Below are positions 1-19,278 of a DNA stretch of 64,000 bases, in pieces. Position 1 is the stretch's first letter. Each line of letters begins with the position of its first letter. The translations under genes were made by a program, and so were the position numbers. The notes beneath the pieces were generated by a model. The model was not told the origin of the DNA and did not search any database. It worked only from the letters and a program-made list of their open reading frames with translations. The stretch lies in assembly GCA_020639215.1 (NCBI GenBank), contig JACKHA010000012.1, positions 7,896-71,895 of the forward strand, given 5' to 3'. The stretch comes from Phycisphaeraceae bacterium. GTDB lineage: Bacteria; Planctomycetota; Phycisphaerae; Phycisphaerales; UBA1924.

Positions 1-1165
1 GGGCGTTCGGGAACGACGCGCCGAACGCGTCGGGCAGACGCGGCGTGGTGAGCTGCGGGGCGGGCTGGACAACGCCGCCGACCGTTCCGGAGGGCGGCGG
101 GTCCCACGGGAAGATCGGCTCGGGGATCACGCCGAGGACCTCGCTGCCCTCGTGGGTCTGCATGACCTGGGCGCGGATGGAGGCCAGGTCCGTCGTGGCG
201 ATGTCGATCAGGCCCGAGCCGCTCAGGATGAGCGGCGGACGCCGGTACCCGCCCTGGGTGGGGTACTCGGTGCCGTACAGCGCGGGGGCGACGACCCGGT
301 TCTTGCCGCGGAAGAACTCGCCGGAGGCGGGCAGCAACGCGATCTGGAGATCGTCGTCCTCCAGTCGGGCCAGCGCCGACGCCGTCAGCGGGTTGTACCC
401 CCAGATCGGGCCGGTCGGCGGGAACTCGGTTGCGATGGTCGGCGGCTGGACCAGCAGCGTCACCTGGCGCAGGAGGATCCAGTCGCTGGCGAACGCGTTG
501 GGGCCGGGACGCCCCGGCAGCGTCCCCACGCTCGGCTGGCCGAGGCGGCCCGCGAGCTGGTTCGGATTGAGCATCGGCGAGCCGGACTGCGACGTGTTCC
601 GCCAGCCGTAGGGGTCGGTCGGGTCGATGGGCGGCGAGACCGTGCCGTGCCCGTAGTAGATGGCGGCCTCGCCGGACCGGGCCACCAGCAGCGGGTGGAT
701 CGCCTCGCGGGCCGAGGCGAACTCGCCCTGGGCGAAGAACAGGAGCTCGTCGATGCGGCGCGGGCGCTGCCCGGCGGCGGGCTGGCCGCGGAACAGCGGG
801 ACGCGGACCTGGTCGTATCCGCCGTAGCCCACGCCGTCGGCGTCGTTGGTCACCTCGTGGCGGATGACCATGTACCCGTTGCGGGACATCCGCGCGAAGT
901 CCTGGGCCAGCGTGCGCTGGAGCAGACCGGCGTATGAGTTGAAGTACGCGGTGCGCCGCCCCTTCGTGACGGTGTCGCCGGTGGTCTTGAAGAGCTGGGC
1001 CAGGGCAAGCGCGATCAGCACCGAGGCCCCGACCGCCACCAGCAGCTCGAGCAGCGTGAACGCGACGCGGGCGGCGCGACGCGTGACGCCGACACGCGGC
1101 CCGCCACGCCCCGCCTTGCTGGAGGCGTGCGGACGGCTCGTGCTGTGCTTGGCCCTGCGGTTCAT
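1..1165 (-). CDS. prepilin-type N-terminal cleavage/methylation domain protein (giant pseudopilin D); 3' end runs off the window
   Basis: Not in the ORF track because no stop lies in the window. My reverse-complement translation from ATG 1165-1163 gives MNRRAKHSTSRPHASSKAGRGGPRVGVTRRAARVAFTLLELLVAVGASVLIALALAQLF... This is a basic leader, then an FTLLELLVAV N-methylation motif with Glu at +5, then a hydrophobic helix. The frame stays open to position 1 (>388 aa). Confidence 0.75.
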   Translation of the reverse strand, partial: MNRRAKHSTSRPHASSKAGRGGPRVGVTRRAARVAFTLLELLVAVGASVLIALALAQLFKTTGDTVTKGRRTAYFNSYAGLLQRTLAQDFARMSRNGYMVIRHEVTNDADGVGYGGYDQVRVPLFRGQPAAGQRPRRIDELLFFAQGEFASAREAIHPLLVARSGEAAIYYGHGTVSPPIDPTDPYGWRNTSQSGSPMLNPNQLAGRLGQPSVGTLPGRPGPNAFASDWILLRQVTLLVQPPTIATEFPPTGPIWGYNPLTASALARLEDDDLQIALLPASGEFFRGKNRVVAPALYGTEYPTQGGYRRPPLILSGSGLIDIATTDLASIRAQVMQTHEGSEVLGVIPEPIFPWDPPPSGTVGGVVQPAPQLTTPRLPDAFGASFPNA

Positions 1166-1187
1166 GCGTGCGCCCGATCCTGTCTCG

Positions 1188-1268
1188 ACCCTTCGTCGCG
1201 TGCTCGTCTCTCCGTCTCTTCTTCTCTACTTCTCTACTTTTCTACTTCTCTTTTCCTCTGATTCTCCG
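1188..1268 (-). repeat. purine-rich (sense strand) intercistronic spacer with shared 12-mer
   Basis: Lies between TAG of pseudopilin C (1271-1269) and ATG of pseudopilin D. The + strand is pyrimidine-rich (ctctccgtctcttcttctctacttctctacttttctacttctcttttcctctg). It contains ctctccgtctct at 1208-1219, which is also present at 6239-6250 and 9928-9939. Confidence 0.8.
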
Positions 1269-2426
1269 CTACCGTGCCACCCTGAACACCTGCACATCGA
1301 TCGGCACCACCGGGCTGGCCACGAGCGGGCTGATGTCCAGGCTGTTCACAACGTCCAGCGGCACGGGCGGATCGATGATCAGCACCGAGCGGTCGCCCCG
1401 CTCGACGCCCACGACCGTGTAGATGTTGCCCCGCCCGTCGACGATCTTCTGTCCGATCTGCCCGAGCAGGCGGGCCTCCAGTGAACTGGCCTGATAGTCC
1501 AGATCCAGGCGGTTGCGGTCGTCGGCGGTGCCGATGGTCAGCCCGCCGGCGTCGAACTGGTAGTCCTCGAGCACCGCCACGAACGGGATCGCGTACACGC
1601 CGCGCCCGTCGCCCGTCGGCACGCCCTGCTGGCTCACGCCGACCGCGACGCGCGGCTCCTGGGCTCGAAGCTCAGACTTGCCGCCCTGGGCCACGATCTC
1701 GGCCGCCAGGATCACGTCGGACAGGTTCAGCATCCGACCCAGCGCGCCCCAGGCCGCCTGGTCGCGCCGCTCGCGGCGCGGCACCTGGATGGCGCGGTCG
1801 ACCGGGCGGAGGAAGATCGCGATCTCGAGATCGTCGCGGTCGGTCGGGACGAGCCGGCTGCTGGCGTCGCGCTGGGTGAGCACACGCCGGGCGGCGAGCA
1901 CCCAGTCGACCCGCGGGTCGGCCCCGCGGAGGAACGCGCCGGGCGAGAGGCGGGCCGAGAGCGGGATGGCCACGTCGTCGCCGCGCGGATCGTTGTTGGG
2001 CCCGCTGGAGTTCTTCGAGAGGAACACGAGCTCGCCGGAGAACGCGTTGACGCCCATCCGCGAGGCGAAGGTCGGCTCGCCCGATCCGCCGAGATAGCCG
2101 GGCACCTGCCACGTGCCGTCGCCCGACCACCCGCCCGACGGGCTGGCGTCGTCCTGCAGGATGCCCCAGCCCTTGTCCTGGCCCGGCTCGTTGAGATCCA
2201 GGTTCGAGGCCAGCAGCGACTGCACCGAGCCGACCGCGATCTGGCCCTCGGTCGCCTCAACCGCCAGACGCTGCTCGCGCAGCACCACCGGGAAGATCGA
2301 GGCCAGCCCGAGGATCCCCAAAGACAGCACGAACACCGCGATGAGCACCTCGACCAGCGAGAAGCCGGCGCGGCCCGGCGCGCGGCGGCGCGAGGCCGCC
2401 TTGATGGAAGTGGTTGGCGTTGTCAT
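1269..2426 (-). CDS. prepilin-type N-terminal cleavage/methylation domain protein (giant pseudopilin C, 385 aa)
   Basis: ORF 1269..2747 trimmed to the internal ATG at 2426: MTTPTTSIKAASRRRAPGRAGFSLVEVLIAVFVLSLGILGLA (G|FSLVE motif plus helix). The ATG overlaps the upstream stop as ATGA (2423-2426). Confidence 0.8.
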   Translation of the reverse strand: MTTPTTSIKAASRRRAPGRAGFSLVEVLIAVFVLSLGILGLASIFPVVLREQRLAVEATEGQIAVGSVQSLLASNLDLNEPGQDKGWGILQDDASPSGGWSGDGTWQVPGYLGGSGEPTFASRMGVNAFSGELVFLSKNSSGPNNDPRGDDVAIPLSARLSPGAFLRGADPRVDWVLAARRVLTQRDASSRLVPTDRDDLEIAIFLRPVDRAIQVPRRERRDQAAWGALGRMLNLSDVILAAEIVAQGGKSELRAQEPRVAVGVSQQGVPTGDGRGVYAIPFVAVLEDYQFDAGGLTIGTADDRNRLDLDYQASSLEARLLGQIGQKIVDGRGNIYTVVGVERGDRSVLIIDPPVPLDVVNSLDISPLVASPVVPIDVQVFRVAR

Positions 2427-3553
2427 GGCGTGACCTCCACCACCCCGCCGTTGTACCGATCGACCGTGTACATCTGCGCGACCTCGGGGATCGCCGCGTT
2501 GACCGCCTCGGCGAAATCGAACTGGTAGTCCGGGCTGCTCGCGCTGGCCGGCGGCTCGTAGAAGCAACCCGTCGCGCGGTTCACGCCGCGGAAGCCCTGC
2601 GGCGCACCGTTGCTCGCGATCTGGCGGGCCAGCGCGCGGATGTCGTACAGCGCCAGCAGCGACACGGGACGCGTGAGCACCGTGTCCGAGCAGTCGTCGC
2701 CCAGCAGCAGCTCGCGGTTCTGCAGCGGGTACGCCGGCGTGCCCCACGCCTTGCCGAGCTGGCGGCGGATGTACACGCTCTGCTCCACCGAGCCGTCCAG
2801 GCGGAACCGCGGATCGGCCCAGGGATTCCCGCGCTGACGCCAGGGCGACGCGCCCCGACCGATCGCCAGGTCCGGCGCCAGCACCAGCCCGTCGGTCCGA
2901 TCATCGAACGCCACGCCACCCGTCGTGCCATCGAAACGCACCATGAACGACTGGCGGTACCCGCCCTGATTGCCCGGCGTGTCGTCGCGCCCCTGGCCAT
3001 TGCTCGTGCGATAGAACCCGCTCTCGGGGAACACCCAGTTGTCGATGGTCGGGTCGTAGCGACGCTCCCCGCCGCGCTCCTCGTACCACGCGTACGGCTC
3101 GCTCGCCTCGCCGGTCGGGATCGTGATCGTGCCCGCGGGCGCGAACCCGTTGACCATCCAGCCGCGCGGCAGCCCGATCTCCTCGGTCAGCGGGTCGATC
3201 GCCCAGACCGTGCGACCGTTGAACTCGCCGATGCTCAGGGCCGTCGCGATCGACGCCCGACCGCCCGGCTCGAAGAAGAACACCGCCGCCGAATCGTTCA
3301 GCCCGGCCGAGCGGACCGCCGCGTCCCGGGCCGTCGCCATCGCGACCCGGAAGTTGCTGATCGCCAGCGTTTGGTTGGTCGAGCGGAGCATGCCCACGAA
3401 CGCGGGCACCGCCACCGACACCACCAGCGCGATGATCGTGATCACCGCCAGCAGCTCGGTCAGCGTGAACCCGCGCCGGGCCGCGCCAAAGCCGCCGCGC
3501 GCCACCCGCGGCGTCGCCATCGGCATCCCGGATTGGCTCGCTGATCGCCTCAT
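2423..3553 (-). CDS. prepilin-type N-terminal cleavage/methylation domain protein (giant pseudopilin B, 376 aa)
   Basis: ORF 2423..3583 trimmed to ATG 3553, which forms an ATGA overlap with the upstream stop at 3550-3552. N-terminus is MRRSASQSGMPMATPRVARGGFGAARRGFTLTELLAVITIIALVVSVAVPAF. Confidence 0.8.
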   Translation of the reverse strand: MRRSASQSGMPMATPRVARGGFGAARRGFTLTELLAVITIIALVVSVAVPAFVGMLRSTNQTLAISNFRVAMATARDAAVRSAGLNDSAAVFFFEPGGRASIATALSIGEFNGRTVWAIDPLTEEIGLPRGWMVNGFAPAGTITIPTGEASEPYAWYEERGGERRYDPTIDNWVFPESGFYRTSNGQGRDDTPGNQGGYRQSFMVRFDGTTGGVAFDDRTDGLVLAPDLAIGRGASPWRQRGNPWADPRFRLDGSVEQSVYIRRQLGKAWGTPAYPLQNRELLLGDDCSDTVLTRPVSLLALYDIRALARQIASNGAPQGFRGVNRATGCFYEPPASASSPDYQFDFAEAVNAAIPEVAQMYTVDRYNGGVVEVTP

Positions 3554-4695
3554 CGCCCAAGCCTCACCACGTTGTCTTCCCACGCCTCGAACCGCACGAC
3601 CTCCTCGGCCACGCCCGGGCCAACCCGCAGCCGCTCCCGCAGCAGGTCGATCGGCTCGGTCCCGAACACCCCGTTCGGCCCCGCGCTCACGATCGCGTAC
3701 CGCGACGAGCGCAGCTGCTCGGGCACGCGCGGCCCGGGCTCCATGGGGTCGTCCCAGTCGCGCGGGTCACGCAGGACCAGCGGGATGTTGAGGTACGCCA
3801 GCACGCCCGTGGCCGTGCCCTGCACCTCCGACTCGGGGCTGGCTTCCCAGCGGTAATACCGGATGGCGGTGCCCGACACGCTGACGTACGCCACGCGATC
3901 GGGGTCCGCGTCCAACGCCGCGGGCGGCACCACGCCAACGCCGTGCTCGGCGTACTCATCGCTCGAGACGTACGACGACGCGGTTGCCTCGTCGCGGCTC
4001 AGGCCCAGGAACGCCTCGCGGACCGTCGCCTGCCCGCCGATCTGCCACCCGTCGCGGTTCGTGTACGACAGGCGCAGGCCCGGGCCATCAACCCCGTCCA
4101 CGCTCGCGCCCAGCGCCCCGCCCAGGACGATCGGCAGCGCGAACTTGCTGTACCGCGGGTCCTCGATCGGATCGAACAGCGGTGTCGGCTCCGAGTTCGG
4201 CGAGGTCGAGGCCCGCCCACGCAGGAACGTGGACCCGCCGTCCTGGTAGATCCGGTCGAACGTCGCCACGATCGGGTCGGCCGTGCCGCCGGGGCGCTGC
4301 ACCGGCCCCATCGTCACGCCACCGACGATCCGCGGCATCGCTGGGTGGCTGGGCAGGTCGATCGGGGCCCCGTCGTAGACCAGCGGCGGGGCCTGGTTGT
4401 TGAACGTGTTCTGGAACACGCCGATGCCGGTCTGGATCGTCGTGAGCAGCGACTGGTCGTTGGCCCGACGCGTGCTCCGAATCGCGAACTGGACGGCGAC
4501 GATCAGCAACCCCGCCAGCACCGCGATCACGAGGATGGCCACGAGCAGCTCGATGATCGTGAACGCACGCGGAGCGACCGCCGATCGACCGGCCCCACGA
4601 CGCTCCATCCGGTGCCGCCCCATCACGCACTGGCGGGGCCCGCATCGCCGGGTCCGCCCCGGTCCGATCCTGGTTGTCCCCGCTGGTGCGTTCAT
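3550..4695 (-). CDS. prepilin-type N-terminal cleavage/methylation domain protein (giant pseudopilin A, about 381 aa)
   Basis: ORF 3550..4806 trimmed to ATG 4695 (alternative ATGs at 4623 and 4608). Motif ...SAVAPRAFTIIELLVAILVIAVLAGLLIVAVQF with Glu at +5. The start is uncertain. Confidence 0.75.
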   Translation of the reverse strand: MNAPAGTTRIGPGRTRRCGPRQCVMGRHRMERRGAGRSAVAPRAFTIIELLVAILVIAVLAGLLIVAVQFAIRSTRRANDQSLLTTIQTGIGVFQNTFNNQAPPLVYDGAPIDLPSHPAMPRIVGGVTMGPVQRPGGTADPIVATFDRIYQDGGSTFLRGRASTSPNSEPTPLFDPIEDPRYSKFALPIVLGGALGASVDGVDGPGLRLSYTNRDGWQIGGQATVREAFLGLSRDEATASSYVSSDEYAEHGVGVVPPAALDADPDRVAYVSVSGTAIRYYRWEASPESEVQGTATGVLAYLNIPLVLRDPRDWDDPMEPGPRVPEQLRSSRYAIVSAGPNGVFGTEPIDLLRERLRVGPGVAEEVVRFEAWEDNVVRLGR

Positions 4696-9990: not shown

Positions 9991-11697
9991 CTAGTCCTGC
10001 GCCTCCACCTGGGCGACGCGGGCGATCTCGTCCGGCGTGGTCACGCCGGCGAGCACCTTCAGCTTGCCGTCCTCGACGAGCGACCGCATGCCGTTGGCGA
10101 CCGCGGCCTTGCGCACCTCCGGCAGCGGCGCCAGGTTGAACGCCAGGTCGCGGATCTGCGAGTTCATCAGCATCATCTCGAAGATCGCCTTCCGCCCGCG
10201 ATAGCCCGTCCGGTTGCAGTTCTCGCACCCGACGGCCTTATGGACCTTGCCAGCCCCGTCGCTGGCGCTCAGCCCGATGAGGCTCATGAACTTGGGGTCC
10301 GGGTTCGGATCGACCTGCTTGCACTTGGGGCACAGGATGCGGATGAGGCGCTGGGCCATGATCGCCTGGATCGACGAGGCGACCAGGAAGGGCTTGATGC
10401 CCATGTCCACCAGACGCGTGATGGCCGAGGGTGCGTCGTTGGTGTGCAGCGTCGAGAACACCAGGTGGCCCGTCAGCGCGGCCTGGATGGCGATCTCGCC
10501 GACCTCGCGGTCGCGGATCTCGCCGACCAGGATGATGTTGGGCGCCTGGCGGAGCATCGACCGCAGGATCTCGTGGAACCCCAGGCCGATGCCCTCCTTC
10601 ACCTGGCACTGGTTGATGCCGTCGAAGTTGTACTCGACCGGGTCCTCGGCGGTGATGATCTTCTTGTCGGGCTTGTTCAGGACGTCCAGGGCCGAGTAGA
10701 GCGTGGTGGTCTTGCCCGAGCCGGTGGGCCCGGTGACCAGGAAGATGCCGTTGGGGCGCCGGATGATCCGGTTGAAGATGGCCAGGTTGTCCTCCTCGAA
10801 GCCGAGGTTGACCAGGCCGATGCGGACCGAATCGGGGCGGAGGATACGGGCCACGACCGACTCGCCGTGGTAGGCCGGGCAGGCCGAGACGCGGAAGTCG
10901 ATGTCGGTGCCGTCAACGCCGAGCTTGATGCGTCCGTCCTGCGGGACGCGCTTCTCGGCGATGTTCATCGAGGCCATGAGCTTGAAGCGGCTGAGCACCG
11001 CGTTCTGCATGCGCTTGGGCAGGTTGTCGCGCTCGATGCACACGCCGTCGATGCGGTAGCGCAGGCGGACACGGTCGGCCATCGGCTCGATGTGCACGTC
11101 CGAGGCCCGCATCTTGACCGCCTCAGTGAGGATGCGGTTGCACAGGCGGACGATCGGGGCGTCCTCGCCCGCGATGTCGATCGACTTGTCCACCGAGCGG
11201 TCGACCGACCTGTCGATCGACTCCGAAACCAGCGACTCCTTCGCCGAGACCTCGCGCTCCTTGCTCTTGAGCGTGCCCTCGATGTAGGAGCGGATCTGGC
11301 CACGAGACGCGAGCTTGGGCTCCAGCTCCACGTTGAGGCGGAAGCGGAGCTTGTCCATCAGCTCGATGTCCATCGGGTCATGGACGAGCAGCTTGAGCTT
11401 GCCGTTGGCCTTGCCCAGCGGCAGGACGAGGTTCTTCTTGATCAGGTCGTCGGGCACGAGCGAGGTGTCGATCTGGTTGGCCGCGCCGTGGGCCGACAGA
11501 TCGACGTACTCCATGCCGAACTGGTTGGCCAGGGCCTTGGCGACGGCCTCTTCGCTGGCGAAGCCGAGCTCGGTCAGCACCTCGCCGAGGCGCTTGCCCG
11601 AGCCCTTGGCGACGGCGGCGGCCTTCTCGGCCTGCTCCTTCGAGATCGTCCGCCAGGACACCAGGATGTCGCCGAGTTTCGTGCGGGATCGTGCCAT
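9991..11697 (-). CDS. second GspE/PilB-family assembly ATPase with N-terminal MshEN-like domain (568 aa)
   Basis: Walker A VTGPTGSGKTT, APNIILVGEIRD, GHLVFSTLHTND, tetracysteine CPKCK...CENCNRTGYRGR. The N-terminus reads KLGDILVSWRTISKEQAEKAAAVA and RLGEVLTELGFASEEAVAKALANQ. Confidence 0.92.
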   Translation of the reverse strand: MARSRTKLGDILVSWRTISKEQAEKAAAVAKGSGKRLGEVLTELGFASEEAVAKALANQFGMEYVDLSAHGAANQIDTSLVPDDLIKKNLVLPLGKANGKLKLLVHDPMDIELMDKLRFRLNVELEPKLASRGQIRSYIEGTLKSKEREVSAKESLVSESIDRSVDRSVDKSIDIAGEDAPIVRLCNRILTEAVKMRASDVHIEPMADRVRLRYRIDGVCIERDNLPKRMQNAVLSRFKLMASMNIAEKRVPQDGRIKLGVDGTDIDFRVSACPAYHGESVVARILRPDSVRIGLVNLGFEEDNLAIFNRIIRRPNGIFLVTGPTGSGKTTTLYSALDVLNKPDKKIITAEDPVEYNFDGINQCQVKEGIGLGFHEILRSMLRQAPNIILVGEIRDREVGEIAIQAALTGHLVFSTLHTNDAPSAITRLVDMGIKPFLVASSIQAIMAQRLIRILCPKCKQVDPNPDPKFMSLIGLSASDGAGKVHKAVGCENCNRTGYRGRKAIFEMMLMNSQIRDLAFNLAPLPEVRKAAVANGMRSLVEDGKLKVLAGVTTPDEIARVAQVEAQD

Positions 11698-11943: not shown

Positions 11944-12741
11944 ATGGCGGGTTCGAACGGACATGTCGAGATGAAGCCTTCCAAGAGCCACCCAGCCGGC
12001 GCCGAACGCGGCGGGCCGCCGCGTTTGCTGATCACCGCCGGCCCGACCCAGGAGCCGATCGACGCCGTCCGGTACATCGGGAACCGCTCGTCCGGGCGGC
12101 TTGGCGTGTCGCTGGCAGAAGAGGCCGCCCGTGAGGGGTGGCGCGTGACGCTCCTGCTGGGCCCGACGCCGCGGCAGCCTGCCGATTCGCGGATCGACCT
12201 CCACCGGTTCCGAACGACGGCGGACCTGCAGGCCCTGCTGGGCCAGCACCTGCCCCACTGCGACGTGCTGGTCATGGCGGCGGCCGTAGCCGACTATCGC
12301 CCGAAGATCGACGCCGCGACCCTGGGCGGAAAGCGTCGGCGGGTGGCCGAGGGTCTGACGATCGAACTCGAGGCCACGCCGGACCTTCTGGCCGGGTGCG
12401 CGGCCAGCCGGCGGGCGGACCAGACCCTGGTCGGCTTCGCTTTGGAGCCCCGCCAGGAGATGGTCGCCTCGGCCCGACGGAAACTGACGCGGAAGAAAGT
12501 GGATCTGATCGTCGCCAATCCTCTCGAAACGATGGACGCCGAGACGATCGAGGCCACCGTTTTCGGGGATGAGCCGACCGGCCTTGCCGGCGGGCGATCC
12601 ACCCCCGGCCCGATCGCCAAGACGGCGTTCGCCGGGTGGCTGCTTGGGGTGATCGGTGAGGTTCGGGAGCGGATGGCTCCCACAACAGGGGATGGCGCTG
12701 GCGAGGCGACTTCCGCTCGGAGCGACCATGCCAGACGGTGA
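11944..12741 (+). CDS. coaB: phosphopantothenate-cysteine ligase domain protein (stand-alone CoaB-like, 265 aa)
   Basis: LLITAGPTQEPIDAVRYIGNRSSGRLG and VLVMAAAVADYRP match the CoaB half of CoaBC. No flavoprotein (CoaC) half is present in this ORF. Confidence 0.7.
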   Translation: MAGSNGHVEMKPSKSHPAGAERGGPPRLLITAGPTQEPIDAVRYIGNRSSGRLGVSLAEEAAREGWRVTLLLGPTPRQPADSRIDLHRFRTTADLQALLGQHLPHCDVLVMAAAVADYRPKIDAATLGGKRRRVAEGLTIELEATPDLLAGCAASRRADQTLVGFALEPRQEMVASARRKLTRKKVDLIVANPLETMDAETIEATVFGDEPTGLAGGRSTPGPIAKTAFAGWLLGVIGEVRERMAPTTGDGAGEATSARSDHARR

Positions 12742-14986
12742 CCAGCACGGCGGACCAGGGAATCAGGGTGGCGATTGGCAACCCCCGACTCGGCGCGGGC
12801 CGAGGCCGGTGCGGGTCAGCCCGCCGGGTAGTGGCGGGCCGGGCGGTGGGCCGGGGGGCGGCGCGCCGCGCGGGCCGCGGCAAGGGGGATCGCGATCCGG
12901 GTTCGGCGGCGGCTACGGCGCCGGGTTCGGGTCCGGGGGTCCGGGGCGTGGGCCGCGATCGGGATTTGGGCCGGGCGGGGGGCGCGGGCCCCGGATGGGT
13001 GGCGGCTTTGGCGGTGGGCCTCGGCCGGGGCCGGGGCCGCGGCGTGAGGCTGGTCCGGGCCAGGGGTTCGATGGGCCGCGCGGGCCGCGCCAGGAGCGGA
13101 CGCCGCCGCTGCGGGTGCTGTACCAGGACGAGGCGATCCTCGCGGTTGAGAAGCCGGCGGGGATGGCGTTGTCGGTGCCGCCCGGCAAGCCGCGGCGACC
13201 CGGGACGCTGACCCTGCAGGATCAGGTGCTCGAGTACGTGCGGAGCGAGGGCGGTCGCAAGGCCGGGGCGTGGGGCGTTCACGACCTGGACCGCGAGGCG
13301 TCGGGGATCGTGGTGTTCGCGCGGAGCCCGGCGGCGGCGGAGTCGGTGCGCTCGGCGTTCGGATCGAAGAAGGGCGATGCGATCTACCTGGCGGTGGTGG
13401 ATGGCGTGGTCGGTGCGGGGCCGCGAGTTGTGATGGAGAGCGGCGGCGTGCCGCACGATTCGTCGGGCGACGCCGATGGCGAGTCCGCGAAGGGCGACGA
13501 CACGCGCGACGACGCGGGTGATGGCGAGTCGAGCGGCGATGACAGTGGTCGTGGCGGACCGGCGACGCAGGATCGCCCGTTCACCGGCACAGTTCGTTCG
13601 TTCGTGCGGCGCGTGGGGCCGCGGGTCGAGAGCATCCCGCCGGACGAGTTCACCGGGGATCGTTCGGGCGGGAAGCGTGTCGAGACGCCGCGATTGGCGA
13701 TCACGCACTACCGGGTGGTGGCGTCGGGGCACGGTCGGACGCTGATGCGGCTTCGGCTCAAGAGCCCGCGGATGCACCAGGCGCGGGTGCACATGCGCGA
13801 CCTGCGCCATCCGGTGACGGGCGATTCGTTCTACGGCGCGGGCGAGCGGGTCGGTCGCACGATGCTGCACCTGGCGGAGATCACGTTCCCGCACCCGACG
13901 ACGCACAAGGCGGTGCGTCTGTCCAGCCCGGCACCGGCGTCGTTCTGGCAGGCGGTTGGGGCCGAGGCGCCGGCGGAGGCGGGGTCGATTCGGGCGAAGG
14001 TGCGGGAGGCGGGAGCGCCGGGTCGTGGCGCTGATGCGGCGGGCGAGTCGCACGCGGCGTCGGCCACGGCGGGCGCTTCATCGGAAGCCGCGGGCATTGT
14101 TGGGGCGGGCGAAGCCGGCGACGCCGATCGCGGCTGGGAGCACGTGGCCGAGTGGTACGACGCGCTCGTGGCGGGAAAGAACAACGACCTGCAGGACGAG
14201 GTGGTCACGCCCGGCGTGCTGCGCCTGCTGGAACCGCGGCGTGGTCAGCGGGTGCTGGACGTGGCGTGCGGGCCGGGCGAACTGGTGCTGCGCCTGGCGG
14301 GCATGGGGGTTGAGGCGGTGGGTGTGGATGCGGCACCGCGGATGATCGAGATCGCGCGCCATCGCGCCGAGCAGGCGAGGCCGCGGGTTGCTCAAGCGCC
14401 CGGGCACGAAGGCGCCGGTGGCAGCGCGAACGCCGATGCGATCGCGCGTTTCGAGGTCGCCGATGCCCGATCGCTTCGCGACGGGCTGCGCGACGATGCG
14501 CCGTTCGACGCGGTCACCTGCGTCATGGCGCTGATGAACATCGACGACCTGGGCGCGACGCTCGAGGGCGTCGCGTCGCTGCTGAAGCCCGGCGGGCGCT
14601 TCGTCGCGGTCGTGCTGCACCCGGCGTTCCGGTCGCCCGGCGTCACGACCTGGGGCTGGGCGTCGCAGGCGGTGTCCGCCGGCGGTCGGGGCGGCATGGC
14701 CCACCGCCAGTACCGGCGCGTCGATGCCTACCTCTCGCACGCCACCAGCGACGTGACCATGAACCCCGGCTCGGTGGCGCGCGGCGAGGCGCCGGTCGTG
14801 ACGCACACGCACCACCGCCCGATCGGGGCGTACGTCTCGATGCTGGGCCGGGCCGGGATGCTGGTGGACTGCCTGGAGGAGTGGGCCAGCCCGCGCCGCA
14901 GCCAGGCGGGGCCAAGGGCCGCGGAGGAGGATCGGGCCCGCCGGGAGATCCCGATCTTCATGGCGGTGCGGGCGGTCAGGCGATAG
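12728..14986 (+). CDS. fusion protein: Gly/Arg-rich N-terminal region, RluA-family pseudouridine synthase and class I SAM methyltransferase (752 aa)
   Basis: ORF 12656..14986 trimmed to ATG 12728 (MPDGDQ). Residues 1-125 are RGG/GFG-rich. RluA motifs: VLYQDEAILAVEKPAGM, HDLDREASGIVVFARS, PRMHQARVHMRDLRHPVTGDSFYG. The C-terminal methyltransferase has VLDVACGPGELVLRLA, FDAVTCVMALMNIDD and LLKPGGRFVAV. There is no stop between the domains. Confidence 0.8.
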   Translation: MPDGDQHGGPGNQGGDWQPPTRRGPRPVRVSPPGSGGPGGGPGGGAPRGPRQGGSRSGFGGGYGAGFGSGGPGRGPRSGFGPGGGRGPRMGGGFGGGPRPGPGPRREAGPGQGFDGPRGPRQERTPPLRVLYQDEAILAVEKPAGMALSVPPGKPRRPGTLTLQDQVLEYVRSEGGRKAGAWGVHDLDREASGIVVFARSPAAAESVRSAFGSKKGDAIYLAVVDGVVGAGPRVVMESGGVPHDSSGDADGESAKGDDTRDDAGDGESSGDDSGRGGPATQDRPFTGTVRSFVRRVGPRVESIPPDEFTGDRSGGKRVETPRLAITHYRVVASGHGRTLMRLRLKSPRMHQARVHMRDLRHPVTGDSFYGAGERVGRTMLHLAEITFPHPTTHKAVRLSSPAPASFWQAVGAEAPAEAGSIRAKVREAGAPGRGADAAGESHAASATAGASSEAAGIVGAGEAGDADRGWEHVAEWYDALVAGKNNDLQDEVVTPGVLRLLEPRRGQRVLDVACGPGELVLRLAGMGVEAVGVDAAPRMIEIARHRAEQARPRVAQAPGHEGAGGSANADAIARFEVADARSLRDGLRDDAPFDAVTCVMALMNIDDLGATLEGVASLLKPGGRFVAVVLHPAFRSPGVTTWGWASQAVSAGGRGGMAHRQYRRVDAYLSHATSDVTMNPGSVARGEAPVVTHTHHRPIGAYVSMLGRAGMLVDCLEEWASPRRSQAGPRAAEEDRARREIPIFMAVRAVRR

Positions 14987-15003: not shown

Positions 15004-15276
15004 ATGCTGTTCATGGTCATCGAGCACTTCGAGGACGGACGGGCGGCGGAGGTGTACCGGCGTTTCCGCGAGCGGGGTCGGATGGCTCCGGACGACGTGC
15101 GGTATGTAGCCAGTTGGGTCGACACCGACTTCCGGCGGTGCTTCCAGGTGATGGAAGCGCCGTCGCGGGCGTCGCTGCAGGCGTGGATGGACGCGTGGAG
15201 CGACCTGGTGCGGTTCGACGTGGCGGAGGTGCGCACGTCGGCCCAGGCCGCGGCGATCATGGACGCCGACGCGTGA
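15004..15276 (+). CDS. DUF3303-like small protein (90 aa)
   Basis: ORF 14881..15276 trimmed to ATG 15004, after the upstream TAG at 14984-14986: MLFMVIEHFEDGRAAEVYRRFRERGRMAPDDVRYVASWVD... The family assignment is from memory of DUF3303-type N-termini. Confidence 0.6.
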   Translation: MLFMVIEHFEDGRAAEVYRRFRERGRMAPDDVRYVASWVDTDFRRCFQVMEAPSRASLQAWMDAWSDLVRFDVAEVRTSAQAAAIMDADA

Positions 15277-15294: not shown

Positions 15295-15723
15295 TCACAC
15301 CGCCTCCATCTGGCGGATGCGCTTGGCCTGCTTGACGTTCTCGACGCACTGGCGGAGGCGTTCGCGGATCTCGCGGGGCTGGGCGATGGCGCGGAGGTGC
15401 AGCACCGGGGTCGCGTGATCGGTGGTGGCGATCCAGATCGTGCCGAGATTGACCATGCGCTCGATCGGGGTCTGGGTGACGGCCGAGTCGCGGACGCGGT
15501 ACAGCTCGACTTCCTCGAGGCGGCGGGAAACCACGCCCCACTCCATGCGCAGACGCTCGGTGGTGAGCGTCATCCGCATGGACCTGGTGACGAGCAACCG
15601 GTGGATCGCCAGGAACACGGGGATGATGAGCCAGCAGAACAGGATGCTCAGGACGAAGAAGCGGAAGTTGCTCCACTGGCTGGGCGTGCCCTGCCAGACG
15701 AGTTGCTCGTGGGGCGGCTCCAT
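15295..15723 (-). CDS. membrane protein with bacterial PH (bPH_2/YdbS-like) domain (142 aa)
   Basis: N-terminal hairpin of hydrophobic segments (FRFFVLSILFCWLIIPVFLAIHRLL) followed by ...TLTTERLRMEWGVVSRRLEEVELYRVRDSAV...LGTIWI, which is the YdbS/YdbT-type layout. Confidence 0.6.
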   Translation of the reverse strand: MEPPHEQLVWQGTPSQWSNFRFFVLSILFCWLIIPVFLAIHRLLVTRSMRMTLTTERLRMEWGVVSRRLEEVELYRVRDSAVTQTPIERMVNLGTIWIATTDHATPVLHLRAIAQPREIRERLRQCVENVKQAKRIRQMEAV

Positions 15724-15815: not shown

Positions 15816-16229
15816 TCACGCCGCGCGACGCAGGAGGCCGGCCGCCAGCGTGTCGAGCAGGCGGTGGCGATCGGCGGCGTCGGCGAAGGACGTGAAGGCG
15901 GCGGCCATGCGGACGGGGCCGGGCACGCCGTCGTTGTCGGTCCAGACGATGCGCCCCATGGCCTCGACCGAGGGCGGGCCGTCGTCGAGGGTGATGGCGT
16001 CCGGGTTCAGGCTTCGCGGGAGCCAGCGGGGCAGGTTGACGCGGAGCGTGACGGGCGTGCCGGGGGGCAGGGCCTCGTCGAGTTCGAACTGGGCGCCGCC
16101 CTCGGCGATGTCGTAGGCGTGTCCCTCGAGGGTGCGATCGGCCCCGGCGATCTTGACCTCCACGCCCGTGTACATGGGCAGGGTGGCGAATCGCTCGTGG
16201 CGGCGGCGGTTGGTGGTTGGGGCGAGCAT
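15816..16229 (-). CDS. PilZ domain protein (137 aa)
   Basis: ORF 15816..16493 trimmed to ATG 16229: MLAPTTNRRRHERF... (RxxxR motif) and DIAEGGAQF (D/NxSxxG-type motif). Confidence 0.7.
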   Translation of the reverse strand: MLAPTTNRRRHERFATLPMYTGVEVKIAGADRTLEGHAYDIAEGGAQFELDEALPPGTPVTLRVNLPRWLPRSLNPDAITLDDGPPSVEAMGRIVWTDNDGVPGPVRMAAAFTSFADAADRHRLLDTLAAGLLRRAA

Positions 16230-16419
16230 GGGACGGCTCCGTTTGAGAGGGCACGTCCGGTATCGGCGCGGGAGGGGTGCGGCTTCAGCGTTCGGGCGGA
16301 AAGAGCGCGTTTGGTGCAGGAACGTGGGAGGCGTCCGATGGTGGCGCGAGATGTGCGCGTGGAGGGAGAACCGCGGGCTGGCGCCGCGCGGCTCGTGTGC
16401 GCGTCGGGCGTCGATGGAC

Positions 16420-19278
16420 TCAGCGGCCGCCGGGGGCGTCGGGGCCGGCGGGCTGGGGTCCCGCGGCGTCACCGCCGCCGGATCCGTCGCCATCGCCCTG
16501 GGTTGGGGCGGGCGGGGGCGGCGGTGGCGCGGTGACGTGCTGGAGCAGCTCGTCGGCGGGGGCCGGGATCGCGGCCAGCTGGATGACGTTGTTCTGGCGG
16601 GTGTAGTAGCGGGCGAAGGCCTCGCGGACGACCTGGGGGGTCATGTTGCGGTAGCGCTGCGGGCTGGACTGGAACGCGCGCGCGTCGCGCCCCCGAAACG
16701 TCGCGACCGAGAGGATGTCCCACCAGCCGGTCGCGGAGCCGACGGAGGTTTCCTGGTCTCGGGCCAGGTCCTCGGCGGCGGCGCCGACCTCTTCGAGCGT
16801 GGGGCCGTCGGTGGCGAAACGCTGGAACATCCCGTCGACCGTCTGGCAGTATCGGGCCCAGGCCTCTTCGTCGTGGTCGCCCTGGACCACGTAGTACATG
16901 AAGGAGGTGCCGGGGAACTGCTGGAGGAAGTTGATGTTGAACGACCCGCCGCCGGGCAGGCCCAGGAGGGGGGCCTCGCCGACAAGTCGGGCGTTGAGGA
17001 TGTTCATCGCGACCTTGAGGGCCTCGGCGTCGGCGTCCTCCTGCTCGCAGACGTAGAAGCCCTTGACGTAGATGCCGGCCCGAGTGCCCATGGACTGGAC
17101 CTCGGCGGTGCCGACGTGGGGCAGCGGGTTCAGGACATTTGCCCGGAGCTCGGAGAACGTGCTCGTCGAGATCCGCGGGCGATCGGGGAGGCTGGCGACG
17201 TAGTACCTGAGGGCGTCGAGGGCCTCCTCGAGGGGGATGTCGCCGGTGATGGCGACCTCCATCGGAGCCAGGGCGACGCGGCGCGACCAGGCGCGGGTGT
17301 CGTCAACGGTCAGGTGCGAGGCCATGTCGGGGGTCGGGGGGCGGACGCGGGCCTCGCCGGGAACGTACATGGTCTCGTTGAGCAGGTGGGTGAAGGTGTC
17401 GCCCAGATCGATCCCCAGGGCGGGCGCGCCCGATTCGACGCCACGGGCGTAAAGCTCGACCTGCTCGGCGTTGGGCTCGGAGCGGGTGAGCATGGCGTGG
17501 AAGCGCTGCATGTAGGCGTTGAAGAACTGGCGGTTGGTGGGCACGGCGATGCGGTAGTAGTCGCCCAGGCCGATGGACTGCATGCGGACGGATGAGGGGC
17601 GGAGCAGGGCCTGGAGCTTCGCCGACGCCATGTCGGGCAGTTCCATCACCTCCCAGGAGCGTCCGACGAGTTCGGACAGGCCGCGGGTCGAGGCGTCTTC
17701 GAGGAGCTGGCCGCCGGCAAGGCTGGCGGAAAACTCGACGCCGCCGGGCTGGCGGCCCTGCATCTGGCGGAAGTGGAATCGGACGCCGTTGGAGAGCCAG
17801 CCGGACCAGACCTGGGTCTCGGGGTCCTGAGCCATCTCAACGACTTCGCCCGGCGTGGGGAGAGTCGGGGCCAGGAGCCAGGGGCGGACGAGCTCGAGCG
17901 CGGGCTCGGGCATCTGGGCCCAGGCGGCCTGGGCGGCCTGCGCCACGGCCTGTTCCGTGGGCGCGCCGGGCTGGGCGGGGATGGCCAGGACCATCGCGGA
18001 CACGCCGGGGTCGATGTAGCGTCCGAAGGCCCACTCGGCGTCGTCGGCGCCGATGTTGCGGATCTGGGCGAAGAGCAGTTCGAGGCGCTGGGCCGCAGAC
18101 GGGCCGCCGCGAGACCCGACAAGGGCGTCGGCGAGCGTGGCGGCGGGGCCCGTGGTCTCGGCTTGCGTCTGGGCTTCGAGCTCGGCGGCCATGGCGATGA
18201 GCGACTCGCCGACGTCGGCGGTCTCGATGCCGTGGATGCGGATTCGGTTGGCCTCGGTGATAGCGGCGGTGAGGACTTCGCTCCAGTTGGCGGCGTCGCC
18301 CGTAGCGTGGAAGGCCGTCCAGCGGAGGCCCTCGGGGCCGTCGAGCGTGTCGCAGGTGGCGGCGGAGAAGGGGACCTTGTCCTTGGTGAGGCGGACCTGG
18401 GCGATGTTCTCGAGCACGTCGAGCGCGACGTGGGCGACGAGTTCAGCGCGGATCGCGCGGACGGAGTCGGCGTTGGCGTTGGGGGCCGCGGAGACGAGGC
18501 TGAAGACGGGGGTGGAGATGCCGGGGTCCTCGATGATGATCGGGGCGGCGGGACGGGTCCACGACGCGGCGGGGGTCGCGGGCGAGGCGGGGCGCGGGAC
18601 GCGGGCGAGCGAGCCGAAGGCGGCGCGGACCTGGCCCACGAGGGCCTCGGCGTCGCCGGGGGCGACGACGATGAGCGTGGCGTTGGACGGGACGTACCAG
18701 CGTTGGGCGAAGGCCTGGATCGCGTCGGGCGAAAGGGCGCGGACGGCGTCGGGCATGCCGGCGGCGGGACGGCGCACCGCCCGCGAGGTCGGCATGAGGC
18801 GGCGCATCGCCAGCATGTGGACCCGCTGTTCGGCCGGGACGCGGGCGAGCGACTCGGCGGCGGCGACCTTGGCGGCCGCGAGCGCGTCGGCGCGGATCGC
18901 CTGGCCCGTGATGAGCGTCGAGAACGCAGAGAGACGCCCGGCGAGGCCGGAAGCGTCGGCGAGGTTGAGCGAGACGACCGCGTGGTCGCCGGCGACGCTG
19001 GTGCTCGCGTCGGAGCCGACGGCGGCGCGGGCGGCCTGGGCGGCGACGTCGGCGGTGCCGTACTGGTTCTCGGTCTCGTGGACGAGCCCGGCGTCGACGA
19101 TGAGGCGGACGGCGGCGCCGCGCGAGGGGTCGTCGATGGGGACGACGAGGTAGCGAAGGCCGTTGTCGAGGGTGCCGCTGGTGACGCGGGGGTCGGCCTC
19201 GAAGCCCTGCGCGACGGCGCGCGGGGCGAGGAGGGCCAGGAGCATCAGGGCGGCAAGAGCGGCGAACTGGCGAAGCAT
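16420..19278 (-). CDS. secreted M16 (pitrilysin/insulinase)-family protein lacking the HxxEH zinc motif (952 aa)
   Basis: Signal peptide MLRQFAALAALMLLALLAPRAVAQG. M16-type N-terminus is GTLDNGLRYLVVPIDDP...RLIVDAGLVHETENQYG, where HxxEH would be expected. The length fits a double M16 N/C module. It has a Pro/Gly-rich C-terminal tail. Confidence 0.7.
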   Translation of the reverse strand: MLRQFAALAALMLLALLAPRAVAQGFEADPRVTSGTLDNGLRYLVVPIDDPSRGAAVRLIVDAGLVHETENQYGTADVAAQAARAAVGSDASTSVAGDHAVVSLNLADASGLAGRLSAFSTLITGQAIRADALAAAKVAAAESLARVPAEQRVHMLAMRRLMPTSRAVRRPAAGMPDAVRALSPDAIQAFAQRWYVPSNATLIVVAPGDAEALVGQVRAAFGSLARVPRPASPATPAASWTRPAAPIIIEDPGISTPVFSLVSAAPNANADSVRAIRAELVAHVALDVLENIAQVRLTKDKVPFSAATCDTLDGPEGLRWTAFHATGDAANWSEVLTAAITEANRIRIHGIETADVGESLIAMAAELEAQTQAETTGPAATLADALVGSRGGPSAAQRLELLFAQIRNIGADDAEWAFGRYIDPGVSAMVLAIPAQPGAPTEQAVAQAAQAAWAQMPEPALELVRPWLLAPTLPTPGEVVEMAQDPETQVWSGWLSNGVRFHFRQMQGRQPGGVEFSASLAGGQLLEDASTRGLSELVGRSWEVMELPDMASAKLQALLRPSSVRMQSIGLGDYYRIAVPTNRQFFNAYMQRFHAMLTRSEPNAEQVELYARGVESGAPALGIDLGDTFTHLLNETMYVPGEARVRPPTPDMASHLTVDDTRAWSRRVALAPMEVAITGDIPLEEALDALRYYVASLPDRPRISTSTFSELRANVLNPLPHVGTAEVQSMGTRAGIYVKGFYVCEQEDADAEALKVAMNILNARLVGEAPLLGLPGGGSFNINFLQQFPGTSFMYYVVQGDHDEEAWARYCQTVDGMFQRFATDGPTLEEVGAAAEDLARDQETSVGSATGWWDILSVATFRGRDARAFQSSPQRYRNMTPQVVREAFARYYTRQNNVIQLAAIPAPADELLQHVTAPPPPPPAPTQGDGDGSGGGDAAGPQPAGPDAPGGR

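Follow-up and report, generated by a model that had tools for sequence, protein, structure and literature searches.

A gene on contig JACKHA010000012.1 of a Phycisphaeraceae bacterium, within the 64,000-nucleotide stretch analysed here (the window), encodes one polypeptide of 752 amino acids (aa) in which a basic disordered tail precedes an RluA-type pseudouridine synthase (PUS) and a class I S-adenosylmethionine (SAM) methyltransferase. With a probability of roughly 0.5, we read this fusion as a bifunctional RNA-modifying enzyme, conserved in Phycisphaerae, in which the tail would lend affinity, the PUS domain would dock on an RNA and the methyltransferase would methylate that same RNA. Both catalytic domains are ordinary members of known superfamilies. 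A preliminary description, made from the letters of the window, had the anatomy right, while its label 'RGG domain' and its proposal of a coupled modification of one RNA exceed the evidence. The product has five parts: the basic tail, the PUS domain, an acidic insert within the PUS domain, an Ala/Gly linker and the methyltransferase. They are laid out, with their main motifs, as follows.

12728..14986, plus strand: whole gene, fusion of basic tail, PUS and methyltransferase, 752 aa (open reading frame (ORF), Pfam, full-length homologs, third-position bias)
12728..13111, plus strand: basic Gly/Pro/Arg-rich low-complexity tail, aa 1-128, predicted to be disordered (composition, predicted local distance difference test (pLDDT), codon changes)
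13112..13987, plus strand: RluA-superfamily PUS domain without S4, aa 129-420 (PF00849, PDB matches, Foldseek, pLDDT)
13280..13306, plus strand: PUS motif II HDLDREASG, aa 185-193 (family alignments)
13418..13567, plus strand: acidic Asp/Gly/Ser-rich insert in the PUS domain, aa 231-280 (net charge -10; pLDDT below 50)
14000..14125, plus strand: Ala/Gly-rich disordered interdomain linker, aa 425-466 (pLDDT below 50; alignment)
14126..14983, plus strand: class I SAM methyltransferase, aa 467-752 (Pfam, AlphaFold, Foldseek, alignment)
14252..14278, plus strand: SAM-binding motif I VLDVACGPG, aa 509-517 (nearly invariant among 126 family members)

The open frame that holds the gene spans 12656..14986 of the plus strand in the ORF listing of the window, and the stop codon of the fusion lies at 14984-14986. 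Both domains are present in each of the 12 close homologs. Among 1.84 billion representatives searched with a profile, about 95 clusters (50% identity, 497-796 aa) match it over its full length. When one genome per species was scanned, 373 relatives were found; the best 80, on which all locus counts below are based, are full-length fusions throughout, aligned from query position ~128 to 751 in a continuous frame. Their titles nearly all read Phycisphaerae, Phycisphaerales, Phycisphaeraceae, Phycisphaera, Tepidisphaera or Planctomycetota, with one Isosphaeraceae, and nearly all of these genomes are metagenome-assembled genomes (MAGs). Public labels on the proteins are 'pseudouridine synthase' or 'methyltransferase domain-containing protein'. 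Compared with an 89% identical ortholog from a Phycisphaerales MAG (L001), substitutions fall mainly at the third codon position in every segment. The preliminary description had spoken of one uninterrupted frame encoding tail, RluA core and methyltransferase, and the Pfam domains, the quoted motifs and the conservation of the fusion in orthologs bear this out, with no sign of a missed stop or frameshift. The only in-frame internal starts ahead of the methyltransferase are a GTG at aa 425 and a GTG at aa 473, the latter inside the conserved first helix of that domain, and among the in-frame candidates of the gene no ATG lies near the methyltransferase start; an independent internal methyltransferase start is not found. 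As judged by these comparisons, the fusion is a real single gene and not an assembly artefact.

An AlphaFold model of the full-length protein, built on a 70-sequence alignment, resolves two domains with confidence, aa 129-420 and aa 467-752, most of which lie at a pLDDT of 90 or above. Conservation in the fusion is strongest, by a wide margin, in the methyltransferase, which holds 26 of the 29 invariant columns of that alignment. These include motif I (D511, C514, G515 and G517), the acidic residue that closes beta-2 (D534, in GVD534), N604, H631-P632, W642, R663, Y668 and a C-terminal EEW...R...E.P signature. Overlapping Pfam matches to Methyltransf_25/11/23/31/12 cover aa 493-634, with scores well above threshold for PF13649 (60.3 bits vs 27) and PF08241 (53.4 vs 21.2), and no specific methyltransferase family was matched in NCBIfam. 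Modelled alone, the domain has a Rossmann-like fold at a pLDDT of 88.5 and a predicted template modelling score (pTM) of 0.87, and it bears a beta-rich cap together with a conserved C-terminal EEW...PGPRA..E.RAR.EIP.F segment. A low-confidence insert after beta-2 and its helix (aa 551-572, 14378-14443; block pLDDT ~54-58) varies in length among orthologs. The best Foldseek matches, at probability 1.0, are the uncharacterised structural-genomics methyltransferases 3bkw, 3e8s, 3d2l and 3g5l (E 1e-16 to 4e-15; target-normalised TM-score 0.66-0.78). They are followed by glycine N-methyltransferase, the natural-product enzymes ToxA, MtfA, CcbJ and SeMT/SgMT, and the peptide N-methyltransferase CypM. 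The linker ahead of the domain varies in length in the alignment and has no secondary structure.

The PUS domain matches PseudoU_synth_2 (PF00849) over aa 137-357 at 58.0 bits (gathering score 26.8), as the preliminary description had anticipated for both catalytic domains. RluD, RluA and RluC are its PDB sequence matches, and RluD (11wx), RluA (2i82) and RluC are found by Foldseek at probability 1.0, with a target-normalised TM-score of 0.79-0.82 for RluA 2i82; human RPUSD1/4 are also among the matches. Outside the acidic insert, pLDDT is about 90 or higher. Motif II contains the catalytic Asp188 (13289-13291), aligned to the family Asp column, and the protein further retains Tyr220, His350/Gln351/Arg353 of the HQxR motif and an LH...HP motif. 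The quoted string MHQARVHM is present in its core as PRMHQARVH; the clade to which the window protein belongs reads H(D/E)LD...PRMHQAR, with PRMHQAR instead of GRKHQIR. Also as described, an acidic insert interrupts the core; it is predicted to be disordered and has no secondary structure, and it is variable in, and confined to, the close relatives of the window protein, being absent in the more distant P0008-P0012.

Within the fusion, conservation across the family is lowest in the PUS domain, whose only invariant columns in the 70-sequence alignment are G193, Q351 and H381. Of 126 members, 102 have Asp in the catalytic column, 18 have Glu, 2 have Pro or Ser and 4 have a gap, so that the Asp is lost to Glu, Pro or Ser in ~16% (20/126). 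About half of the family is fully canonical (HRLD...GRKHQIRVH), and just 54 of 126 retain the HRLD Arg. The replacements of the Asp, which occur alongside an intact methyltransferase motif I (VLDVACGxG across the family), point to a repeated loss of synthase activity with retention of the fold. A search with the PUS domain alone gave 12 matches at 25-47% identity, all with generic names and no clue to a target; there is no close stand-alone PUS ortholog, the best being 25-38% identical.

The first 128 residues of the protein contain 38% Gly, 20% Pro and 13% Arg and carry a net charge of +11, and aa 1-121 have a pLDDT below 50 and no secondary structure in the full-length model. Local GC content reaches 80-82% in the tail region; that of the whole window is 71%. 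Between the window and L001, the tail has accumulated 42 synonymous vs 8 non-synonymous codon changes, 41 of 53 mismatches lie at codon position 3, and the single indel is 30 nucleotides (nt) long and in frame. This constraint is comparable to that of the PUS segments (42 vs 5) and far tighter than that of the acidic insert (7 vs 13, plus 4 gap codons) or the linker (9 vs 12). By this measure the tail is translated and under purifying selection. The ATG at 12728 is kept in L001. In each of L001-L005 the frame extends without a stop to an ATG where the upstream coaB-like gene ends, and it encodes a basic tail (in L002-L005 the upstream extension is a Gly/Arg/Pro-rich segment), a start Met adjoining the coaB end being a feature of the relatives as well, and in the distant homologs P0003, P0004 and P0010-P0012 the proteins as called include such a tail. 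A basic tail of 40-130 aa is missing from the public calls of this gene and of several orthologs: P0001 (623 aa), the entry for the window protein, begins at Val130 (GTG, 13115), and the calls for P0002 and P0005-P0008 likewise begin downstream of the tail. Because of the codon pattern against L001, the open frames in L002-L005 and the tails of distant called proteins, calls that start at Val130 are, on comparative grounds, too short. The dropped tails suggest that start sites are systematically misplaced where the N-terminus is GC-rich and of low complexity.

The preliminary description had likened this region to an RGG/GAR (Gly/Arg-rich) domain. The Gly/Arg-rich, positively charged and disordered composition of a GAR region is indeed present. 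RGG/RG motifs are defined as tri- or di-RGG and tri- or di-RG with spacers of 0-4 residues. Four regular expressions written for these patterns gave no match in the tail: RGG triplets are absent, and the five RG dipeptides (at positions 23, 48, 74, 86 and 118) never lie within 4 residues of one another. The recurring unit is GPR/RGP, with 8 GPR. The tail is GAR-like by composition only and is not an RGG box. In a six-frame scan of the window it is the only Gly/Pro/Arg stretch inside a gene; a second stretch that passes the composition filter, at 28755, is taken as a non-coding frame.

Relatives were surveyed for tails at the 80 loci, an extension being counted if it was in frame and at least 15 aa long ahead of the PUS core. 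Such an extension exists at 67 of 80 loci and is net positive in 66 of these 67. Its medians are a length of 60 aa, 24% Arg plus Lys, 15% Pro, 13% Gly and 7% Asp plus Glu; only 5/67 tails have at least 25% Gly, and 15/67 contain any RGG. Family tails are therefore basic and Pro-rich rather than Gly-rich overall, and the property that is conserved, on this survey, is a basic disordered tail and not Gly-richness or a GAR character. The idea that Gly-richness is a by-product of high GC content was not supported (Spearman 0.14, p 0.26, 67 loci). Across the same loci gene-body GC (0.60-0.75) predicted neither tail length nor basic fraction, and K/(K+R) of the tail dropped weakly with it (rho -0.27, p 0.03).

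No S4 remnant was detected, in line with what had been expected: the tail (aa 1-131) has no Pfam match, S4 included, at E up to 0.1, and S4 (PF01479) is not matched anywhere along the 752 aa at E up to 1. One family member, P0214 (691 aa), has a sub-threshold S4 (PF01479, E 4e-4) at aa 10-56, ahead of its PUS domain, where other members carry the basic disordered tail; this position fits a tail occupying the place that S4 has in RluC and RluD. Of the earlier suggestion that an RGG-type domain stands in for S4, the basic tail at the S4 position holds and the RGG character does not.

In the reading we favour, the positively charged tail would provide non-specific, long-range affinity for RNA. 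The S4-less PUS domain would dock on a specific stem-loop, flip out a uridine and isomerise it to pseudouridine, and the tethered methyltransferase would then methylate the same RNA, either at a neighbouring nucleotide or at the new pseudouridine itself. The PUS fold would thereby double as an RNA-recognition module for the methyltransferase. The PUS domain of the window protein probably forms pseudouridine. Selection probably acts mainly on methylation, since the methyltransferase remains conserved in members whose PUS active site has decayed. That a single RNA is both pseudouridylated and methylated in a coupled manner, as put forward in the preliminary description, is plausible: the single polypeptide speaks for it, and the structural neighbours of the methyltransferase, which are small-molecule, peptide or uncharacterised enzymes, speak against it. 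A far more specific version seems to us decidedly unlikely, namely a one-polypeptide pathway to a methylated pseudouridine, or to a pseudouridine with an adjacent methylated nucleotide, carried out by a class I and not a SPOUT enzyme at a Phycisphaerae rRNA or tRNA site that is not so modified in model bacteria, with the tail replacing S4.

It is very improbable that the architecture is an annotation artefact, that is, an untranslated tail ahead of a true start at Val130 or two genes joined by a sequencing error. Such an artefact would fit the database calls that begin after the tail, and one contig (L007) does carry separate, overlapping PUS and methyltransferase calls. GC-rich genomes also hold long spurious ORFs, and one of 593 aa (12272..14053, minus strand) covers most of the fusion gene; we regard it as a spurious open frame of the kind usual in a genome of ~71% GC, because all homology evidence backs the plus-strand frame. 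On L007 (3198-7343), however, two calls in different frames stand for each of the DFP, PUS/methyltransferase and MFS genes, and because three adjacent genes are all broken we infer long-read indel errors; the 'stand-alone' methyltransferase P0017 called there is probably an artefact. The codon pattern of the tail with its in-frame indel, the open frames and basic tails of L001-L005, the tails in called distant homologs and the continuous fusion at the best 80 loci all argue against an artefact.

Several findings weigh against a bifunctional enzyme acting on one RNA, and they lend substance to two functional alternatives. The full-length model has a pTM of 0.50, which leaves the relative placement of the domains undefined and gives no confident picture of two sites facing one substrate. 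The literature searched yielded neither an experiment nor a paper on this architecture. RNA methyltransferases are absent from the best 50 Foldseek matches of the methyltransferase domain, Hen1 is the only one among its best 60 PDB sequence matches (weak, E 4e-3), and the scores of NCBIfam models for RNA methyltransferases stay far under the cutoffs (RlmD, 26 bits vs 458). Its stand-alone homologs (~265-350 aa, 44-53% identity; Planctomycetota, Dehalococcoidia and Wallbacteria) have no RNA-binding domain, and the two stand-alone loci inspected (L008, L009) have unrelated neighbours and no PUS gene nearby. Such a picture would suit two enzymes with unrelated substrates, as in yeast Rib2, the PUS acting on RNA, the methyltransferase on a small molecule, peptide or protein, and the fusion serving co-expression. 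We regard this as a tentative alternative, on the doubtful side. It draws further on the nearest structures being uncharacterised or being glycine N-methyltransferase and natural-product or peptide methyltransferases, on the Rib2 precedent of an RluA-family PUS joined to a riboflavin-pathway deaminase (PMC5699540), on the coaB-like gene upstream on the same strand in 61/80 genomes, and on one homolog (P0269) fused to a 4'-phosphopantetheinyl transferase domain. Yet the fusion is kept class-wide even where PUS catalytic residues are lost, and a non-catalytic PUS is easier to explain as serving the methyltransferase; the basic disordered tail on the same chain points to a nucleic-acid partner; and the link through P0269 is a single gene call. 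Nor is the fold class decisive: the broad Methyltransf_11/25 class includes the RNA enzymes RlmA, Trm9 and Bud23.

The remaining contrary points concern the PUS domain. The usual Arg of HRLD, which inserts into the RNA stack in the structure of RluA with RNA, is replaced by Asp186 in the window protein. None of the NCBIfam PUS cutoffs is reached, neither for the rluA subfamily (TIGR00005, 113 vs 192.7) nor for the equivalogs TruC (72 vs 328), RluD (66 vs 351), RluA (63 vs 286) and RluC (38.5 vs 378). The protein could accordingly be an RNA methyltransferase only, its PUS domain being, in the window protein too, a non-catalytic module for RNA recognition or a chaperone that makes no pseudouridine. 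We hold this to be unlikely. The PUS domain has just 3 of the 29 invariant columns, a catalytic Asp column and an HRLD Arg that are often replaced, PRMHQAR for GRKHQIR and a 50-aa disordered acidic insert in the clade of the window, and no close stand-alone ortholog, all of which agree with a fold freed from catalysis. The window protein nevertheless retains Asp188, Tyr220, the His/Gln/Arg set of positions 350-353 and LH...HP, its PUS segments are under strong constraint against L001, and about half of the family is fully canonical in both HRLD and GRKHQIRVH. An RNA-modifying enzyme with both activities is the explanation that we prefer for the window protein.

Among characterised enzymes, E. 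coli RluA and TruC are like the window PUS domain in catalytic fold, in the motif II Asp, the Tyr and HQxR, and in having no S4; the window protein differs from them by HDLD for HRLD, the 50-aa acidic insert, the 128-aa basic tail and the C-terminal methyltransferase. RluC and RluD have an S4 domain at the position where the fusion family carries its basic tail. The methyltransferases RlmH, Nep1 and TrmY have the SPOUT (trefoil-knot) fold, and those of the RluD/RlmH and Nep1 pathways are separate proteins. A synthase followed by a methyltransferase on one nucleotide is the natural functional model for the fusion: RluD and then RlmH make m3-pseudouridine 1915 of 23S rRNA, and Pus10 or H/ACA and then Nep1 make m1-pseudouridine, each a two-enzyme pathway (PMC7694415). 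The fusion is unlike RlmH and Nep1 in that its methyltransferase is a class I Rossmann domain with no trefoil knot and is joined to the synthase; pseudouridine is only a candidate for its substrate. An analogy with RluA and RlmA, in which pseudouridine 746 lies by m1G745, was considered and dropped, since RlmA is found neither among the 60 PDB sequence matches of the methyltransferase nor among its first 50 in Foldseek.

Fusions of related kinds have been described. Yeast Pus8/Rib2 combines an RluA-family PUS with a riboflavin-biosynthesis deaminase behind an N-terminal S4-like domain (PMC5699540). It resembles the fusion in uniting an RluA-family PUS and a second enzyme in one polypeptide, and differs in its partner, a deaminase and not a methyltransferase, and in its N-terminus, S4-like and not a disordered basic tail. 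RlmKL (YcbY) is a bifunctional 23S rRNA methyltransferase that is fused in some lineages (PMC3367195). It too has two RNA-modifying catalytic domains in one chain; both are methyltransferases, whereas the fusion combines two different chemistries. Closest in structure to the methyltransferase are 3bkw (Mesorhizobium loti), 3e8s (Pseudomonas putida), 3g5l (Listeria) and 3d2l (Exiguobacterium), stand-alone proteins of ~220-240 aa at 19-24% identity that carry no functional information; the sequence match to 3bkw reaches into the C-terminal cap.

GAR/RGG domains are known from eukaryotic fibrillarin, GAR1 and nucleolin. Arg/Gly-rich disordered segments occur beyond the eukaryotes for which the preliminary description had called such regions typical: bacterial Rho has additions of this kind in Actinomycetota and in the PVC group (PMC11347177). 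Rho additions and eukaryotic GAR domains resemble the tail as basic, Gly/Arg-containing, disordered segments on an RNA-binding enzyme. The window tail is unlike RGG domains in having no RGG or clustered RG and in its 20% proline and GPR/RGP units. In the literature on Phycisphaerae pseudouridine or on bacterial RGG-bearing PUS, nothing specific was found.

The gene lies immediately downstream of a coaB-like gene on the same strand, and a possible ribosome-binding sequence precedes its start.

11944..12741, plus strand: coaB-like gene with the DFP domain only, 265 aa (PF04127, E 2.3e-51)
12719..12722, plus strand: GGAG, Shine-Dalgarno-like, 5 nt 5' of the ATG at 12728 (read from the sequence)

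The coaB-like gene is without the CoaC flavoprotein half, and the fusion start at 12728 overlaps its stop (12741) by 14 nt. A coaB-like gene stands directly 5' on the same strand at every locus inspected (L001-L007), and by tblastn it was found upstream on the same strand at 61 of the 80 genome loci (L010-L089), directly adjacent in most. Because this pairing persists where the fusion proteins are only 35-42% identical, the two genes probably form a conserved operon; they are probably co-transcribed and translationally coupled. P0269 (603 aa), the methyltransferase homolog with a C-terminal 4'-phosphopantetheinyl transferase domain (PF01648, E 7.5e-17), has a Pro-rich N-terminus; this single gene call would be a second, independent link of the methyltransferase family to phosphopantetheine metabolism.

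Further out, a 90-aa DUF3303 protein (15004-15276, plus strand) begins 18 nt after the fusion stop; in L001 no gene is called at this position. It is followed by genes for a bacterial PH-domain (bPH_2) protein (15295-15723) and a PilZ-domain protein (15816-16493), both on the minus strand. Upstream, on the strand opposite to the fusion, lies a gene for a PilB/GspE-type secretion ATPase (MshEN plus T2SSE; 9991-11697, minus strand). L001 has three such ATPase genes in a row (1-4553), and the order of ATPases, coaB and fusion is kept in L001 and L002 and partly in L007. An Rfam scan of the window gave no family at the gathering threshold.

The PUS-methyltransferase architecture is class-wide in barely cultivated bacteria, and none of its members is characterised. 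Should both domains act on one RNA, it would be the first single-chain synthase-methyltransferase RNA modifier, and the methyltransferase might be the first of class I to be linked to pseudouridine. On the practical side, automatic gene calls lose the basic tail in many members of the family. The family as a whole provides a natural series on target recognition by RNA-modifying enzymes without S4, PUA or THUMP, spanning canonical and decayed PUS domains, Gly-, Lys- and Pro-rich tails, and an acidic insert that is present or absent.

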